Positions 6,114 through 62,267 of a stretch of 64,000 bases of DNA are shown one piece after another. The stretch spans positions 15,318 through 79,317 of IMG/VR virus record IMGVR_UViG_3300012346_000689; one strand, written 5' to 3'. Position 1 is the stretch's first letter. Each line of letters begins with the position of its first letter. A program made the position numbers and the translations under genes. Below the pieces are notes generated by a model. It did no database searches and was not told the DNA's origin. It worked only from the letters and a program-made list of their open reading frames with translations. Source of the DNA: a virus.

Positions 6114-6809
6114 ATGGATGTCATAGAAAGAGAGGGATTTTTAGCTTATAGCACGCTACCTAGTTTTAATCGTAAAGTTGACAAGGCTAAAGCGATAATT
6201 AAAGAAGCGATCGCTATTGCTCCGTCTTATGTAGCGGTGAGTTGGGGAAAAGATTCGACGGTATTGCTGCATTTGTGCCAGCAAATAAAGCCTGATATAT
6301 TAGCTATTTACCATGGACATATAGAGCGAGATTTAATATCTAATTATAGTGAAACAATTGATAATTATTGTCAGAAATTTTCAACTAATTTATTAATGTT
6401 AGAAACAGACGACGCTGATGAAAATATGGCAGTAAAAGCCCCTTATCAGCAATATCCAGTATGTTTTTTAGGTATTAGAGGAGAGGAAAATAAAAGAAGA
6501 AAAATAGCTTTAACTAAGTATGGATTAATTCATCAATACCAATCAGGTAAATTGATAGGAAACTGGAGAATAGCCCCGATCGGGTGGTGGACGTGGCAAG
6601 ATGTGTGGAGTTATATCGTCGCTAATGACATTCCGTATTTAAAGGCATATGATGACTCGATAAGAGGTTGGGAATTGTCGAGGACGACTGATCACGTCTC
6701 CAAAAAATTAAACAGACCGTTACATTTTCAGAGATTAGAGGAGTTTAAGCAGACCAATCATGTATATTATGATTATCTAAGAACACATTACCCAGAGGTT
6801 TTTTTATGA
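6114..6809 (+). CDS. CysH/PAPS-reductase-like PP-loop protein (type IV-B-associated kind)
   Basis: YVAVSWGKDSTVLLHL PP-loop, FLGIRGEENKRR, PIGWWTWQDVWSYIVANDIPY; close to the csf operon. Confidence 0.85.
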   Translation: MDVIEREGFLAYSTLPSFNRKVDKAKAIIKEAIAIAPSYVAVSWGKDSTVLLHLCQQIKPDILAIYHGHIERDLISNYSETIDNYCQKFSTNLLMLETDDADENMAVKAPYQQYPVCFLGIRGEENKRRKIALTKYGLIHQYQSGKLIGNWRIAPIGWWTWQDVWSYIVANDIPYLKAYDDSIRGWELSRTTDHVSKKLNRPLHFQRLEEFKQTNHVYYDYLRTHYPEVFL

Positions 6810-7423
6810 CACTGACAGATACTAAATGGGATTTATTTTCAATGGTAAGAATCGGAAAAGTACAAGAGAATGATGGCAGAATTTGTCCCTTTTTAACTCA
6901 GGCAATTGAATCATTACCATCTACAACGCAAGAGTTTATGATGGTTATGAGAGATTTTTATGAGTCTCAAGAAGGTATTTTGTCAGAAACTAATCAGCTG
7001 TATGTTGACGCTTTAAAAGGAAATTTTGATGATGGTACGTTAGGCAAATCTTTACAGGATTTTTATAGTGAGCATACTTTCCCTATGATAGGAAAGTTAG
7101 GAGCTTTTCCTGCTAAGTATATTTTGATCCATGATGCTCATCACATCCTAATTAATGTAGAGACTGATGAACAGGGAGAAATTGATACGATCGCTTTTGA
7201 AGGTGCTTTAATTAACCCTTTGAGTAGTCGTGGAATTGTGCCATTATTATCTCAAATTCGAGCATTTGAGAATACTAATTTTGACGTTATTCGAGTCGCT
7301 AAAGCTTGGGAAGTAGGTTGTAATGTTCGAGGTGATTTATTAGAAACTTGGGATATTTTGGCAGATTTGAACAGTTCTATTTCTAGTTTACAGCAAAAGT
7401 ATAATATTACACCAGTTCTCTAA
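6806..7423 (+). CDS. Coq4-like protein (HDxxH-x11-E motif)
   Basis: GTLGKSLQDF...IHDAHHILINVETDEQGEIDTIAFE; ATGA-coupled to the cysH-like gene. Confidence 0.6.
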   Translation: MTLTDTKWDLFSMVRIGKVQENDGRICPFLTQAIESLPSTTQEFMMVMRDFYESQEGILSETNQLYVDALKGNFDDGTLGKSLQDFYSEHTFPMIGKLGAFPAKYILIHDAHHILINVETDEQGEIDTIAFEGALINPLSSRGIVPLLSQIRAFENTNFDVIRVAKAWEVGCNVRGDLLETWDILADLNSSISSLQQKYNITPVL

Positions 7424-8980: not shown

Positions 8981-9706
8981 ATGAAAAATTCTTGTATTCA
9001 AGTCACAGCAAAGCTTTCAAGCCATTTGTGTGTCAGTAATGATTGGACTCCGATGTTAGAGTCTATTCTGGAGTCAGTCTGGTTAGATGATCGTGGTTTA
9101 TCCGCGCGTAACCCGTTAAAAATAGAAGACACTATAGAGATCCCTATCCCATTGCGATCGCAGTCTGTCAAATCGACTAAATTCTATTCCGCTTCATCTC
9201 CTTTATATATAATTAAAAATGAGAGTGTGACTTACATTCGCTACCGGTGGGATTACCAGGAACATCATTGCGATTGGGGAAAAAAGAAAGCGCAGGTTTT
9301 TACTCAAGGATTTCATACTAAATACAAAAATACTCCATTACGTCTAGTCGAAACGGATCAAATAGACTGGTTTTGCGTAGGGGATAAAAATCAATTAATT
9401 GATATGTTGAACAAATGTACTCATGTTGGTGGTCATAGGGCTAGAGGTTATGGACAAGTCGATGAATGGATAGTTAACAAGATTGATGATGACTGGAGTT
9501 TGTGGCAGGGTGATCGATTAATGCGTCCGTTCCCCGTGCGATTGTTACCAGAAGGTATTGATGTTAGTACAGCAACTAAATTATTTTGGGGATGGAAAAC
9601 ACCAATTAGATGCCCAGAAAATAGAGAAGAATGTGTTATGCCATCTAACACTATTCATAAGGATAAAATAAATTTACACAATATTGATTATTTTGACGCT
9701 GTATAA
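8981..9706 (+). CDS. csf3: type IV CRISPR Cas5-family RAMP (Csf3), divergent paralogue A
   Basis: RWDYQEHHCDWGKKKA, IDWFCVGDK, Gly-rich loop HVGGHRARGYGQVDEW, LMRPFP; clearly paralogous to 12328-13005. Confidence 0.8.
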   Translation: MKNSCIQVTAKLSSHLCVSNDWTPMLESILESVWLDDRGLSARNPLKIEDTIEIPIPLRSQSVKSTKFYSASSPLYIIKNESVTYIRYRWDYQEHHCDWGKKKAQVFTQGFHTKYKNTPLRLVETDQIDWFCVGDKNQLIDMLNKCTHVGGHRARGYGQVDEWIVNKIDDDWSLWQGDRLMRPFPVRLLPEGIDVSTATKLFWGWKTPIRCPENREECVMPSNTIHKDKINLHNIDYFDAV

Positions 9707-9708
9707 TT

Positions 9709-10482
9709 ATGAATTACTGTTACATTTGCGGGGACAAAAATGCCTCAAAACCATTAGCTTTAAAAGACTCATTTACTGATCACAGTTTGTGCCAAGCTCC
9801 TCAGTCAAAAAATCTATGCGATCGCTGTTACGATTGCCTAGACGGAAAATATAAACAGTGCTGGTATCAAAAAGCTGATGGCAAAGTGAGTAAATTGTGG
9901 GGAAGAAATTGGTCTTGGTTGGTATCTGAAAAGGAGTCTTATCCACAATTTCAAGAGGGGAAAGACGGGTTATTAGAAGTGTTCAATTTACCAACTAGAG
10001 AACTAACTAGAAAGTGGATTGTAAACCCTCCTGCGCCACCTTTTACAATTTGTATAGCGGTGTCAGGGCAAAGGCATACCTATCCTTTTAGTCAGGTTAG
10101 TTATTCTCAAAAATTAATACCAATTACTTTCGAGAAAACTCTTATCAACTGGCGAAAAGATGATCAGTTTTACCTTAATCTCTTTGAAGAGTTTATGAGT
10201 TTAGGATTCTCAAAAACTGAGATAGTATCGGGTGATTATAGCCCAAATAAACTTACCTTGATCGATGTTGATGATTTCTTAGCTAAAGATAAGTATTTAG
10301 CTATTCTTAGAAATACCTCATTGATGGATTTATTGAGTTATATAGCTATAAAACCAGATGTGTTACCTGAAACTCAAGAGATTAATCCTGAACCGATAAA
10401 ACAACCTGCTAAAGTAGAGGTTGAAGACAAAAAGGAATCAGCTTTTACTATTGAATCAAATGGACAATTATCACTTTTTTAA
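9709..10482 (+). CDS. csf1: type IV Cas8-like large subunit (Csf1)
   Basis: CYICG...DSFTDH...LCDRC Zn ribbon, WIVNPPAPPFTICIAVSGQRHTYP, SQKLIPITFE. Confidence 0.8.
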   Translation: MNYCYICGDKNASKPLALKDSFTDHSLCQAPQSKNLCDRCYDCLDGKYKQCWYQKADGKVSKLWGRNWSWLVSEKESYPQFQEGKDGLLEVFNLPTRELTRKWIVNPPAPPFTICIAVSGQRHTYPFSQVSYSQKLIPITFEKTLINWRKDDQFYLNLFEEFMSLGFSKTEIVSGDYSPNKLTLIDVDDFLAKDKYLAILRNTSLMDLLSYIAIKPDVLPETQEINPEPIKQPAKVEVEDKKESAFTIESNGQLSLF

Positions 10483-10484
10483 TT

Positions 10485-10991
10485 ATGTACGGAATTAAAT
10501 CAACTGACCCTAAAATATCGTTAGCAACTGCTCTAACTTATTGGTGTTTTAAATGCCGTAAGCGTAACCCTCCAGTTGTTAAACCTGTAGATACTTGGAA
10601 TTATCTAAAAAGCAGCATTGCTAACGCTGCGACTCCATCAAAAAACCTTAACGATTACATAGAAAACCTCGGTAAAAAGTTACTTGTGCCATCTTTAAGA
10701 CCGGTAGAATGGACTCGAATTATTAGACCTAAGATTACTATTCAAAGAGTAGTTAAAGAAGATGGTAGAATCCTTGAACTATATGAGGATCAAGAAAATG
10801 AAGAGCTACTTTTCTATTCATGGGAAGACATTCTTATAGAGTTGGCTCCTCTAGGAATAACTGAACGACATATCCTCAAGACTTGCCTTAAGTACCCGTC
10901 TGTTATCTGTGCTTTTGCTAGAGTACGTTATGAAGATGACAAAGCGATCGGGCAAGAAATTGAGTTAGAATCTGAAACAATTGACGTTTAA
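10485..10991 (+). CDS. putative Cas11 small subunit of type IV-B
   Basis: Helical 168-aa protein between csf1 and csf2 (WNYLKSSIANAA...LNDYIENLGKKL); mainly a positional call. Confidence 0.6.
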   Translation: MYGIKSTDPKISLATALTYWCFKCRKRNPPVVKPVDTWNYLKSSIANAATPSKNLNDYIENLGKKLLVPSLRPVEWTRIIRPKITIQRVVKEDGRILELYEDQENEELLFYSWEDILIELAPLGITERHILKTCLKYPSVICAFARVRYEDDKAIGQEIELESETIDV

Positions 10992-11009
10992 AATTAAAAG
11001 AGGTATTGT

Positions 11010-12224
11010 ATGTTTGAAAATTATGATGTAAATGACCGTCATCAAATAAGATTTGATGTAGTAATTGAAACCCTGTCACCATTAAGCCATATTGGGGAAA
11101 GTATAGGTAATCAAAGCAATTTAAAAACTTTAGATATTACCGACCTGACAGGTGAATCTAATCCTGTTTTTGTGTACTCTTCTAATAGTTTAAGAAACGG
11201 TTTGTTCAGGCGAAAAGGTACGTTATCAATGTTAGATGACCTTGATTTAACTGTTAATCCTACAACTCACCAAACGTTATTTGCGGGTGGTTTTATTGAA
11301 GGTGGCACAGCAGTAGATTTAGAATTAGATGCCAAAGTTCGGAAGTTTTTGCCATCAATATCGGTGCTAGGAACAGCTAAACCACCAGGGCTATTTAATA
11401 GTAATAATAGTCAAATGATTGGTGGCAGAATTAATATAGGAGGTGCTTATTTAGTATGTTTAGAAACTGCTGAATACATCTATAAAAGTTTTCCCCCTTT
11501 ATTGCCTTATTCAGTGCTTTCGTTTGTAAAAGAATTGGTAGAAGCAAAGCAATCTTTATTTAATGATAGAGTGAATGCTTGGCTTTATCAAAAACAAATT
11601 TCTGGTATTCAAGAAAAGGTAAGAAATTATCAAGAGTTATTGTTAGAATATATGCCACTATTAGAAGATAAATTAAGGAGTTATACGCAGTGGCTAACCT
11701 ATAATCAAAAGGTCAGAATGGATAGTTTAAAAGACCCACATTTAGCACAATATATTAACAGTAATCATCAAATAGGAGGGCAACAAACAAGCTTACTGAG
11801 TGAATCAAAGCCAGATAAAAAGAAGGGTAAATCTTCTGATGAAAAGCACTCTCAACAGATGATTATGGGCGACTGGCTGTTACAGCCGGGTGCGACTTTA
11901 TATTCTCGTTGGGATGGAAATATCACTGATGTTGAAGAGGGAATGCTCGCAGCCGCACTACTAAAATTCGCTGAATCACCGTACTTAGGAGGTAAATGTG
12001 GAACAGGGTGCGGACTTGTTTCTTTTGATATTTATTATCGATCGGGTCAAGAAGCGGGCAAGTGGCTGACTATAGCTCCAGACTCTCAAATATTGTCAGA
12101 AAGATGTCAGGAAAACTATCAAAGATATATGCAACATTTAGAGCAATTTAAAGGATATATTGCTTCAGCAAAACAGGATATAACTAAGTTTCTAAGTGAA
12201 CGTTCTGGGAGTCGCACCCAGTAG
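11010..12224 (+). CDS. csf2: type IV Cas7 backbone RAMP (Csf2)
   Basis: IETLSPLSHIGES, PVFVYSSNSLRNGLFRR, LFAGG, FLPSISVLG, IGGRINIG, YLGGKCGTGCGLV Gly loop. Confidence 0.88.
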   Translation: MFENYDVNDRHQIRFDVVIETLSPLSHIGESIGNQSNLKTLDITDLTGESNPVFVYSSNSLRNGLFRRKGTLSMLDDLDLTVNPTTHQTLFAGGFIEGGTAVDLELDAKVRKFLPSISVLGTAKPPGLFNSNNSQMIGGRINIGGAYLVCLETAEYIYKSFPPLLPYSVLSFVKELVEAKQSLFNDRVNAWLYQKQISGIQEKVRNYQELLLEYMPLLEDKLRSYTQWLTYNQKVRMDSLKDPHLAQYINSNHQIGGQQTSLLSESKPDKKKGKSSDEKHSQQMIMGDWLLQPGATLYSRWDGNITDVEEGMLAAALLKFAESPYLGGKCGTGCGLVSFDIYYRSGQEAGKWLTIAPDSQILSERCQENYQRYMQHLEQFKGYIASAKQDITKFLSERSGSRTQ

Positions 12225-12306
12225 CCGAGTTCAGTTCCTTTTTTCATGATAATTCGGGACTCGGCAAGTGTACAAACTCTTCTGAATACTGTTTCAGCCA
12301 ACGTTC
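12198..12306. ncRNA. candidate tRNA-like cloverleaf RNA between csf2 and the second csf3
   Basis: 7-bp closing stem GAACGTT/AACGTTC; hairpins CTGGG/CCCAG (loop reads TGCGACT on the minus strand, T-arm geometry), GCCGAGTTC/GGACTCGGC and CTGAA/TTCAG. Confidence 0.5.
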
Positions 12307-12327
12307 TCTATCAATATATCATAAATA

Positions 12328-13005
12328 ATGGATAACTTACAAGTAACGGCTTATCTATCAACTCCACTCTCTACTGACCTATTTAGCCCTAATCTAGACG
12401 CGCTATTGTATCGATTATGGCTAGAAGAAAAAGGTCTTTATAATCCTAACGTAAAACGGACTGAGGATGTTATAAAAGCAGATGTTCCTATCAAATTGAT
12501 AGAAGAAAAAGGGTATCAATATTACTCTGTATCTGCGCCTCATTTTATCATCCTAAACGAACAAAACACCCGCTATCGGAGGCGTTGGGATTATCAAGAG
12601 CATCATTGTGACTTTGGCAAAAAGAAGGCTAAAGTCGATACGCAACAAGGCAATACTAAAAGCTGCGATCTGCCACTGAGACTGATAGAAACTAATAGGA
12701 TAGACTGGTTTTGTAACGGGGACAAATCAGAAATTGATCGTCTATTGTCTTCTGTAACAAATATCGGTAAAAAAATCTCTCAAGGTTTTGGGCAAGTTTT
12801 TCGTTGGCAGTCTCAAGTGGTAGAGGATGATTTTAGCGTCTGGCAAGATAAGCGATTAATGCGGATTTTGCCAGCAGAACTCATCCCTGAACATTTAAAA
12901 GAAAGGTATCCTCTGCGAGCGTGGACGTATCATCCCCCGTACTTTTTGCCTGAAAACAAAGCACTCTGCGCTATGCCTGCCAATACAAGAAGCGCATTAA
13001 ACTAA
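12328..13005 (+). CDS. csf3: type IV Cas5-family RAMP (Csf3), canonical paralogue B
   Basis: MDNLQVTAYLSTPL...PNLDALLY, YSVSAP, DTQQGNTKSCDLP, IDWFCNGD, NIGKKISQGFGQVFRW, YHPPYF. Confidence 0.85.
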   Translation: MDNLQVTAYLSTPLSTDLFSPNLDALLYRLWLEEKGLYNPNVKRTEDVIKADVPIKLIEEKGYQYYSVSAPHFIILNEQNTRYRRRWDYQEHHCDFGKKKAKVDTQQGNTKSCDLPLRLIETNRIDWFCNGDKSEIDRLLSSVTNIGKKISQGFGQVFRWQSQVVEDDFSVWQDKRLMRILPAELIPEHLKERYPLRAWTYHPPYFLPENKALCAMPANTRSALN

Positions 13006-13704: not shown

Positions 13705-13777
13705 AATTACCTCTTTCTTGTTACTTTGTTTTCTATACTTCCAATATAATCAATTCTAATTATCCCGTGCGTTCAAT

Positions 13778-13801
13778 TGTGCCACTTTCTCAACTGTCAC
13801 A
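13778..13801 (-). promoter_or_regulatory. 24-bp palindrome, copy 2 of 7
   Basis: TGTGCCACTTTCTCAACTGTCACA. Confidence 0.65.
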
Positions 13802-14015
13802 ATGGCGTACCTATATGCTGCTTGTGTGGGTTACATTAGTAATATGTGCCATTTATCCATTGTAATAACGAGATTTTTGTTATTATGAGTTAAAAACTTG
13901 CGGACAGGTTAGAGCGATCGCAAGTTTTTTTTATTTTAAGCACCGCGATCACAATCAAGTCAAAACTTTTAATATAAAATAGTGTATATGATTATTATAG
14001 TTTATCTATTTAATT

Positions 14016-14325: not shown

Positions 14326-15264
14326 ATGTCAATTAGTACAATGAAACACATAGTTATGTTTTCTGGTGGAGTTGCGTCGTGGTGTGCTGCTAAATTAGTA
14401 AGCGATCGCTACGGGATAGACAATTTAATATTACTTTTTGCTGATACTTTAATAGAGGATCAGGACTGTTATCGATTTATTTTAGAGGGTGCGGCTAACA
14501 TATTCAATATGAGACTTAACCCTAGATATATAGAAAAAGGGTTTTTAAATATTCCTGAGATAGGGGATATAAACCGTAATACTGTTTTATGGAGAATAGC
14601 AAACGAGTCTAGAGTAATTAGGGCTAATTTAGATAATGGTTTAGTCTGGTTGCAAGAAGGAAATGATGTTTGGGATGTGTTTTTTGAAGACAAATTCCTA
14701 AATCATTATGTTAGTAATTGCTCCAAGAAACTTAAACAAAAACCATGTAAAGGCTGGTTAAATTGGGGATTAGAGTCACAAGAGCCAACGGTAGCAAAAT
14801 ACTTAAATAACCCTGAAAATGTGACAATTTATTTAGGTATAGATATGAACGAGATTGAAAGAGCAGAGAAGATAATAGAAGGATATAAACCGTTTAAGGT
14901 AGATTTTCCTTTGCTTTGGGATAATTGGTTAGATAGAAAAGGGCAATTTGACCTATTAGAATCAGTTAATATTCAGCCACCGAGACTTTATAAATATGGT
15001 TTTTCTCATAACAATTGTGGAGGTTTTTGTGTTAAGGCGGGTAAGAAACAATTTGCACAATTACTAGATACTTTTCCTGATAGATATAATTACCACGCTC
15101 AACAAGAAAAAGCTTTCCAAAAGCATATAAAACAAGAGATTACTATATTAAGAGAGCAACATAATAACGAGAAAACAAGGCTTAGTTTGGCAGAGTTTAA
15201 AGAGCGTCCTAAGCAGTTGTCATTGTTTGATGCGATGGGTGGCTGCGGGTGTTTTATTGACTAA
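14326..15264 (+). CDS. phage PAPS-reductase-like PP-loop protein with Cys clusters
   Basis: HIVMFSGGVASW, LFADTLIEDQD, CSKKLK, YLGID, GFSHNNCGGFCVKAG, C-terminal GGCGCF. Confidence 0.75.
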   Translation: MSISTMKHIVMFSGGVASWCAAKLVSDRYGIDNLILLFADTLIEDQDCYRFILEGAANIFNMRLNPRYIEKGFLNIPEIGDINRNTVLWRIANESRVIRANLDNGLVWLQEGNDVWDVFFEDKFLNHYVSNCSKKLKQKPCKGWLNWGLESQEPTVAKYLNNPENVTIYLGIDMNEIERAEKIIEGYKPFKVDFPLLWDNWLDRKGQFDLLESVNIQPPRLYKYGFSHNNCGGFCVKAGKKQFAQLLDTFPDRYNYHAQQEKAFQKHIKQEITILREQHNNEKTRLSLAEFKERPKQLSLFDAMGGCGCFID

Positions 15265-15336
15265 TCCAAGATGCAGGAGTTGAACCTGCCTAGTACAAAT
15301 TATGAGTTTGTTGCCTAACCGATCGGCCAATCTTGG
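15265..15336 (-). tRNA. tRNA with CAT anticodon, Ile2 (lysidine) type
   Basis: CCAAGAT/ATCTTGG acceptor, D-arm GGCCGATCGGTTAGGC, ACAAA-CTCATAA-TTTGT, GCAGG-TTCAACT-CCTGC, discriminator A; resembles cyanobacterial tRNA-Ile2, but Met cannot be excluded. Confidence 0.85.
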
Positions 15337-56673: not shown

Positions 56674-56743
56674 TGCCCTGTCCCCTTGTTTTTAACCTTA
56701 CTCCTCTACAATAGCCAACCACTAGCCACCTTGTGCATACTAT

Positions 56744-56767
56744 TGTGACACTTTCTCAACTGTCACA
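56744..56767 (-). promoter_or_regulatory. 24-bp palindrome, copy 5 of 7
   Basis: TGTGACACTTTCTCAACTGTCACA. Confidence 0.65.
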
Positions 56768-56830
56768 ATAGGCTACGAGTTCTCGGCAGATTCGGGGCTC
56801 AAGCACTTCATGAAACGGTACAAATTGTAC

Positions 56831-61396: not shown

Positions 61397-61431
61397 CTAC
61401 TCTGTTGCAAAGCAGATCGCAATTAAACCTT

Positions 61432-61455
61432 TGTGACAGTTAAGAAACTGTCACA
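61432..61455 (+). promoter_or_regulatory. 24-bp palindrome, copy 6 of 7
   Basis: TGTGACAGTTAAGAAACTGTCACA (perfect 10-bp arms). Confidence 0.7.
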
Positions 61456-61530
61456 AAGGAATACATGATCGTAGTTGGTGGGTGGCTATTATAAAAGAAT
61501 AAGACTATAGCAAAAAAAAGGGGCAAAGCA

Positions 61531-62106: not shown

Positions 62107-62151
62107 GCGGTAGTGCGCAATCCACAAAACTACTAAAAACTCGTGACCTGT

Positions 62152-62175
62152 TGTGACAGTTAAGAAAGTGTCACA
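62152..62175 (+). promoter_or_regulatory. 24-bp palindrome, copy 7 of 7
   Basis: TGTGACAGTTAAGAAAGTGTCACA. Confidence 0.7.
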
Positions 62176-62267
62176 CGGTTATACATAAAGGCATTTAGAG
62201 TAGTTATCATAAAAAATAAGGAGAGATTTCATTGATGCTGAAATCATGAAATCAAAAAAGGCAGTAG

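Follow-up and report, generated by a model that had tools for sequence, protein, structure and literature searches.

A tRNA-shaped element inserted antisense at the csf2/csf3 junction of an array-less type IV-B-like locus in a phage, with a possible origin from a tRNA gene

The DNA analysed here (the window) is a stretch of 64,000 nucleotides (nt), positions 15,318 to 79,317 of the IMG/VR virus record IMGVR_UViG_3300012346_000689, and belongs to a record of 84,261 bp that has direct terminal repeats. It carries a type IV-B-like csf operon, and the gap between two of its genes, csf2 and csf3B, holds a structured element of 109 nt which is the subject of this analysis. Searches with the PADLOC type IV models revealed that csf1, cas11, csf2 and csf3 were all present (E 5e-8 to 2e-44); matches to the same csf families in NCBIfam were weak and below the cut-off. 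The operon could be read from these searches in the order csf3A-csf1-cas11-csf2-gap-csf3B, and the genes of the locus were distributed as follows:

6114–6809, plus strand: CysH-like PP-loop/PAPS-reductase gene, the signature accessory gene of type IV-B (Pfam PF01507, 5.7e-13; PF01171, 9.6e-6)
8981–9706, plus strand: csf3A, an extra Cas5-like paralogue (PADLOC Csf3_0_IV, 5.1e-39)
9709–10482, plus strand: csf1, Cas8-like large subunit (PADLOC Csf1_0_IV, 3.8e-25)
10485–10991, plus strand: cas11, small subunit (PADLOC Cas11_2_IV, 5.3e-8)
11010–12224, plus strand: csf2, Cas7 (PADLOC Csf2_0_IV, 2e-40)
12328–13005, plus strand: csf3B, Cas5, the paralogue occupying the csf3 position of the relatives (PADLOC Csf3_0_IV, 1.9e-44)

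No repeat-spacer array could be detected in the 84 kb (no 12-mer triple spaced 40–100 nt was found, and no array was present among the direct repeats). The match to a CRISPR repeat family in Rfam was just a fragmentary CRISPR-DR4 (14.7 bits, E 1.4), and neither cas6 nor dinG was found among the nine open reading frames (ORFs) scanned with PADLOC. The gene content identifies this phage locus as array-less and type IV-B-like. It was compared with nine distinct related type IV-B loci, whose Csf2 proteins showed 41–60% identity to that of the window. The relatives have the gene order cas11-csf2-csf3-cysH-X with cysH directly after csf3, whereas the order in the window (8981–13005) is rearranged. 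An extra csf3A-csf1 pair precedes cas11, and cysH is detached and located 2 kb upstream of the csf operon; the cysH-X module (6114–7423) lies 1.5 kb upstream of the operon, with three minus-strand ORFs in between. The csf3A and csf3B products share only 43% identity and the duplication is therefore not recent, while csf3B showed 46–51% identity to the Csf3 proteins of the relatives.

The ORF list gave intergenic gaps of 2, 2, 18 and 103 nt in the csf operon, the longest being that between csf2 and csf3B. An earlier note, made from the sequence alone, had drawn attention to this contrast and to the structured character of the long gap, and both points were borne out by the ORF list and by folding. 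In the nine related loci the spacing between csf2 and csf3 ranged from −32 to +23 nt. The two genes overlapped by 4 nt in L005–L007, L008, L009 and L155, by 1 nt in L157, by 8 nt in L021 and by 32 nt, as called, in L002/L004, and a gap of 23 nt separated them in L156. A DNA alignment of the window against four related junctions (alignment A1) revealed a block of approximately 130 nt that was present in the window only and held two features:

12195–12327, no strand assigned: window-only block of approximately 130 nt, holding a promoter-like box and a tRNA-like unit (alignment A1)
12198–12306, minus strand: tRNA-shaped cloverleaf of 109 nt (folds, T- and D-arm matches to phage tRNAs, covariance model R1)
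12313–12321, minus strand: extended −10-like box TGATATATT, read from 12321 to 12313 (promoter scan)

The GC content of the block was 0.47 compared to 0.29–0.40 in its flanks. The last nine codons of csf2 (SERSGSRTQ-stop, 12195–12224) lie almost entirely inside the block and were missing in all relatives; the Csf2 homologues all end in ...FLG(I/L), whereas the window Csf2 reads FL-SERSGSRTQ. In silico deletion of 12207–12307 resulted in ...SERSLSIYHK-TAA, overlapping the csf3B ATG as TAATG. The extension of csf2 to SERSLSIYHK-stop at the csf3 ATG, which the earlier note had predicted for the deletion of one repeat unit, could thus be reproduced; however, the restored tail was still approximately 10 residues longer than in all relatives. 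The proposal of the same note that the element had been inserted agreed with the close spacing in the nine loci and with the window-only block of alignment A1, and on these comparisons the block is an insertion confined to this phage. Among 5.8 billion proteins the nearest Csf2 was approximately 60% identical, and the window Csf2 was a singleton there. A contig search for closer relatives using the single Csf2 protein yielded nothing, and the search with a Csf2 alignment yielded one locus in a Dolichospermum metagenome-assembled genome. In L155, the closest relative (60% Csf2 identity), a gap of 100 nt (2283–2382) was observed after csf3, where the others have cysH immediately; this gap showed no similarity to the window element when searched with the covariance model R1.

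Folding of the 103-nt gap together with the last csf2 codons produced a closed multi-branch structure of −34.7 kcal/mol on the plus strand (z −2.9), and 2 of 200 shuffles did as well as the plus-strand fold of the gap. The exact 109 nt (12198–12306) gave −32.0 kcal/mol on the plus strand (z −2.7). The minus strand produced the same fold with less significance (z −1.5 and −1.7). Every stem listed in the earlier note was found to exist. The fold is closed by a 7-bp stem (GAACGTT at 12198–12204 and AACGTTC at 12300–12306) with a pair probability of 0.97–1.0, and a CTGGG-7 nt-CCCAG hairpin (12205–12221) is stacked directly on it. These are accompanied by a 9-bp arm with a 24-nt loop (12224–12265) and a CTGAA-6 nt-TTCAG hairpin (12282–12297), and an additional hairpin of 3–4 bp (12266–12279), absent from that list, could also be recognized. 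All five helices were intact, comprising 31 pairs with one G-U. The G-U-type pairs do not decide between the strands: the long arm contains a U-G pair found on the plus strand alone, and the small hairpin a G-U pair found on the minus strand alone. Two small ORFs run across the element, one at 12251–12120 on the minus strand (43 amino acids, starting with MKKGTELGYW) and one at 12247–12336 on the plus strand (29 amino acids); both are without an evident ribosome-binding site and are probably spurious.

Reading the minus strand from 12306 to 12198 gave the topology of a tRNA, whereas the order on the plus strand was mirrored and not tRNA-like. The 5′ part of the minus strand consists of the 7-bp acceptor stem, a 2-nt spacer, the D arm CUGAA-ACAGUA-UUCAG and a further 2 nt. 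The middle part contains the small hairpin GAGU-UUGUAC-ACUU at the position of the anticodon arm, followed by the long arm of 42 nt at the position of the variable arm and by 2 nt. In the 3′ part, the T arm CUGGG-UGCGACU-CCCAG is flush with the 3′ strand of the acceptor stem, which is followed by a discriminator-like A. The acceptor stem, the 2-nt spacer, the D arm and the stacked T arm (5 bp, 7 nt) were as found in a tRNA. An anticodon arm with a 5-bp stem, a 7-nt loop, U33 and a purine at position 37 was not found; that position is occupied by a 4-bp stem (one G-U) with the 6-nt loop UUGUAC. Assessment of the nucleotides expected for tertiary contacts revealed that C56, A58 and the G53-C61 pair were kept, and that G8, a D loop without GG and G55 deviated. 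The real tRNA(CAU) genes in L018 and L154 deviate in the same way.

The 17-nt T arm GGGTGCGACTCCC was present in 11 stretches of IMG/VR, which is about the chance number; at least three of the 11 were T arms of tRNAs called by ARAGORN, namely an Arg tRNA in L013 and Met tRNAs in L018 and L019. L018 was found by the T arm alone, and its tRNA-Met(CAU) also carries the 11-mer TGAAACAGTAT at the same D-arm offset as the element, a match with p of approximately 0.02 per comparison by shuffling, before the positional constraint. No proteins were shared between L018 and the window, and L018 was rejected as a related phage. A second, independent tRNA-Met(CAU) with the same D-arm/T-loop pair was found in L154 by a metagenome scan; as the scan required both motifs, it provides no independent support for the element. 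In the sequences compared, the combination of a D loop without GG and G55 in the T loop shows itself as the signature of a small family of real tRNAs. Phage tRNAs with the T loop UGCGACU, that is, with G for U at position 55, were observed at L018 4488–4561, L154 1563–1636, L013 2859–2930 and L019 6549–6620. The pairing of this T loop with D loops lacking the GG pair suggests a compensated tertiary contact between the two loops.

A covariance model (R1) was built from the minus strand of the element alone and applied as a reciprocal test to 197 kb of fetched loci. R1 matched nine full-length targets from end to end with 18–25 bits (E 1e-3 to 0.06) and no further full-length target in these 197 kb; the T arm alone scored only 9–12 bits. 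Seven of the nine were called as tRNAs by ARAGORN, including Leu, Ser, Gln and Met genes which had not been selected by pattern. In the R1 alignments the small hairpin took the position of the anticodon arm and the long arm that of the variable arm; aligned with L018, the loop of the element was one base shorter than the 7-nt anticodon loop. The tRNA-like cloverleaf described in the earlier note was thus recovered on the minus strand by the folds, the D- and T-arm matches and R1. R1 also matched two tRNA-sized stretches in the phage tRNA cluster of L013 (5174–5260 and 5341–5420) that were not called by ARAGORN; by their fit to the model, these may be unannotated atypical tRNAs.

ARAGORN did not call the element in the region or in the window, whether by default, with introns or at a lowered threshold (-ps), and in silico removal of either extra arm did not produce a call. 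At the 80% threshold with an intron, only a poor and different fold was obtained. Annotation of the element as a tRNA or transfer-messenger RNA gene was consequently rejected, ARAGORN being negative in the default, relaxed, intron and arm-removed modes. Rfam searches (E-value mode with 1.5 kb; 146 nt at E ≤ 10) revealed no matching family, the tRNA model included, and returned sub-threshold noise only. The element can no longer decode as a tRNA, since the stem found where an anticodon arm is expected has 4 bp and a loop of 6 nt, and a hairpin of 42 nt occupies the variable region.

The promoter-like box TGATATATT lies inside the inserted block and stops 6 nt short of the cloverleaf, whose first base is 12306, and a weak −35 sequence, TTGTAA, could be seen at 12342–12337 on the minus strand. 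Sites of the type TGNTATAWT occurred 12 times in the 64-kb window on both strands (128 kb of strand), and because there are only 12 such sites, a placement 5–9 nt upstream on the right strand has a p of approximately 5e-4. A similar arrangement was found at the only canonical tRNA gene of the phage:

15265–15336, minus strand: canonical tRNA(CAU), the only one of the phage, unrelated in sequence to the element (ARAGORN; alignment A4)

This tRNA gene sits among plus-strand genes and has TATAAT 9 nt upstream. With its positioned TGATATATT, and with the phage's own tRNA(CAU) likewise a minus-strand gene preceded by TATAAT, the inserted block looks like a complete small transcription unit, from which transcription would proceed along the minus strand. 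A discrete antisense RNA, one of the options raised in the earlier note, could accordingly be possible in view of the extended −10 box. A canonical tRNA(CAU) was observed 1–2.5 kb downstream of the type IV-B operon in the window, in L002 (6736–6808) and in L004 (8083–8155). L002/L004 show 51% Csf2 identity, and the cores of their tRNAs are similar to that of the window tRNA(CAU) while the acceptor stems differ (alignment A4). The ORF beside the window tRNA(CAU) (14326–15264) matched no Pfam family and showed no similarity to the ORF beside the tRNA(CAU) of L004.

The reading favoured here, to which we assign a probability of about 0.5, is that the csf2/csf3 junction received a tRNA-derived gene and its promoter in antisense orientation, and that this gene persists as a degenerate tRNA, or as a tRNA-like small RNA at the most. 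A cassette of approximately 130 bp, consisting of the extended −10 promoter and the tRNA-derived cloverleaf, would have entered a formerly overlapping csf2/csf3 junction in this phage lineage only, pointing against the operon on the minus strand, by way of a recombination event. The cloverleaf would have lost its decoding ability but retained the tRNA architecture and the uncommon combination of D loop and T loop that marks a rare tRNA(CAU) type of phages, and a stray degenerate tRNA gene would be the most likely form of it. Continued transcription would yield a small RNA of tRNA-like shape, antisense to the csf2-csf3B junction. The element was absent from every related operon retrieved and is thus probably a stray tRNA-derived gene and not the missing RNA partner of the system.

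Several observations weigh against such an origin. Neither ARAGORN, even when relaxed or with an arm removed, nor any Rfam family, the tRNA model included, recognizes the element, and its plus strand folds better (z −2.7 to −2.9) than its minus strand (z −1.5 to −1.7). The D-arm match is modest when taken alone (p of approximately 0.02 before the positional constraint), and the T-arm match cannot be counted, being the search criterion. Intact stems throughout would not be expected in an old pseudogene, and the element is a singleton.

The consequences for the operon that can be read in the sequence are a 9-residue tail on Csf2, the loss of the overlapping start/stop junction and a stable structured spacer in the csf2-csf3B mRNA. 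The ATGA-type overlapping csf2/csf3 junction of most relatives would allow translational coupling and is absent in the window. Protection of the csf2 mRNA, lower translation of csf3B and antisense pairing would be the candidate regulatory effects. A possible, though unlikely, alternative takes the element as a plus-strand intercistronic mRNA structure, which would shield csf2 from 3′ exonucleases or give a processing site, and would uncouple csf3B translation to set a needed high Csf2 to low Csf3 ratio, the tRNA likeness being coincidental or historical. Such a role is consistent with the more stable and more significant plus-strand fold, with the long-arm U-G pair exclusive to that strand, and with a position within the operon transcript at a junction that has lost the overlap seen in most relatives. 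However, nine related loci manage without the element, the G-U pair of the small hairpin exists on the minus strand only, and no terminator-like or known processing motif was found by Rfam or the promoter scan. The tRNA match of the D and T arms and the positioned −10 box would also be left unexplained. A neutral recombination scar, in which 130 nt of foreign DNA are left over without function and the structure is a remnant, is less probable again. The gene order of the locus, which differs from that of all relatives (cysH detached, an extra csf3A-csf1 pair), and the lack of conservation of a singleton element point in this direction, but five intact helices (31 pairs, one G-U, closing-stem probability 0.97), a fold with this z-score and a promoter box in this position would be surprising in functionless DNA.

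Transposition of an element resembling a miniature inverted-repeat transposable element (MITE) into the junction, with duplication of the 8-bp target AACGTTCT, appears improbable. The 8-bp direct repeat flanks 93 nt, deletion of one unit restores the TAATG-coupled junction, and the record of 84 kb contains AACGTTCT at two sites only, 12199 and 12300. The repeat reported in the earlier note is real, but as a sign of insertion it is mostly a by-product of the palindromic stem. The palindrome AACGTT within the closing stem dictates six of the eight repeat bases, and the other two (CT) agree by chance (odds 1 in 16); thus the direct repeat provides no separate evidence that the element transposed. 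Between the two copies the ends share GG only, and no inverted repeats beyond the 7-bp stem were present. A second copy of the element was not found in the 84-kb phage record, nor in the INPHARED phages or the PLSDB plasmids. The host of the phage is almost certainly a cyanobacterium, since the octamer HIP1 (highly iterated palindrome 1), GCGATCGC, occurs 65 times in the 84-kb record compared to 1.3 expected, a strong cyanobacterial signature in the phage itself. BLAST against 401 cyanobacterial genomes revealed chance 17–24-mers only, the best of them inside a CHAT/TPR protein gene, and R1 found no copy in 151 cyanobacterial genomes. Pattern scans of IMG/VR and a first pattern in JGI metagenomes found none, and a loose long-arm pattern gave approximately 119 matches, which is chance level. 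As no other copy was found in the phage, cyanobacterial, plasmid, virus and metagenome searches, the element is not a known MITE.

The proposal of the earlier note that the element could be a non-CRISPR RNA, guide or scaffold replacing the missing array is attractive because the RNA partner of type IV-B is unknown. The RNA on which type IV-B complexes assemble is heterogeneous, non-CRISPR and approximately 55–60 nt long (Zhou et al. 2021, PMC7937560); their natural RNA partner and the RNA possibly recognised by Csf3 are unknown (PMC7937560; PMC8175902), and the function of type IV-B was still called unclear in 2026 (PMC13676074). The position inside the operon, the absence of an array in 84 kb and the presence of both two Csf3 paralogues and the element in this phage alone would also agree with a dedicated RNA of this complex, either a scaffold or guide with a variable loop or a handle for a Csf3 paralogue. 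Such a role is nevertheless very improbable. None of the nine distinct related type IV-B loci has the element at the junction, a search of the rest of these loci with R1 was negative, and the tRNA topology is antisense to the operon. The 24-nt loop, for which the guide idea had called for a comparison with host and phage genomes, gave chance-level matches only, in cyanobacterial genomes and in the phage itself. The earlier note had itself named a lack of conservation as a finding that would speak against its proposal, and the element is not conserved across the nine loci or in the wider searches, so the proposal is unsupported. A component of the type IV-B system should recur in homologous loci, which the element does not do; this one phage may have recruited it. 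Known substrates of PP-loop enzymes such as TilS include tRNA(CAU), and CAU occupies the exact centre of the 17-nt loop in the long arm. The minus-strand cloverleaf might on this basis be a working tRNA mimic, on which the complex would nucleate via a Csf3 paralogue or which would serve as substrate of the PP-loop CasCysH, although we regard this as the most improbable of the explanations considered.

If the tRNA-mimic reading were true, the element would be the first defined RNA partner for a type IV-B system. Any structured RNA gene inside a type IV-B operon deserves attention. As the element is not a conserved part of type IV-B, it comes off the list of general RNA candidates, and the locus illustrates how an insertion can break the overlapping csf2/csf3 junction with both reading frames still open.

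Other repeats were also observed in the window. A palindromic motif, TTGTGACA-N-TGTCACAA, occurs at four or five sites (13767–13812, 56733–56778, 61431–61466 and 62151–62186, also 55233), and these repeat families (D1/D2) look like a repressor operator set by their sequence. The palindrome GGTACAAWTWGTACC (family D3) is present in five copies, at 1179, 19859, 28488, 35729 and 56817, and in four of these a G and a stretch rich in T come next. The palindrome may represent a regulatory motif or terminator common to these sites.

Comparison with known systems reveals partial likenesses to several kinds of RNA and repeat. The bacterial and phage Y RNAs (YrlA) reportedly contain a tRNA-like domain (Chen et al. 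2014, RNA), and the element resembles them as an RNA of approximately 110 nt in which arms like the acceptor, D and T arms occur together with a long additional helix in place of a working anticodon arm. This likeness is architectural only: since no Rfam family matched at E ≤ 10, there is no match to a Y-RNA-type family, and no Rsr/Ro or RtcB gene is known near the element. Repetitive extragenic palindromic (REP) stem-loops in malEFG are reported to bring about differential expression within that operon (Newbury et al. 1987, Cell). There, as in the csf operon, a stable structure stands between cistrons whose products are needed in unequal amounts; unlike REP, the element is a unique multi-branch cloverleaf, not a simple hairpin or a repeated family, and its effect is putative. 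With cyanobacterial MITEs and small dispersed repeats it shares the small size, the structure, the short flanking direct repeat and the apparent insertion, but it is single-copy in all of the searches made and without terminal inverted repeats beyond the 7-bp stem. The RNAs of Zhou et al. 2021 (PMC7937560) come from a similar context, an array-less csf1-cas11-csf2-csf3 system with a cysH-like gene; these RNAs are, in contrast, heterogeneous, approximately 55–60 nt long and without a defined structured species, and the element is not conserved across type IV-B.

The closest known type is the atypical phage tRNA-Met/Ile2(CAU) of L018 (IMG/VR 3300028832_002574) and L154 (Ga0307377_10121856). The element differs from these tRNAs by its 4-bp stem and 6-nt loop in place of the anticodon arm, the 42-nt hairpin in the variable region, a 5-bp D stem and an unrelated acceptor sequence, and, unlike phage tRNA(CAU), it is called by neither ARAGORN nor Rfam. 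In common with them it has a 7-bp acceptor stem, a D arm with TGAAACAGTAT and no GG in the D loop, and a T arm, GGGTGCGACTCCC, that has G at position 55 and directly adjoins the acceptor stem. Like the phage's own tRNA, it lies on the minus strand and is closely preceded by a −10 box.

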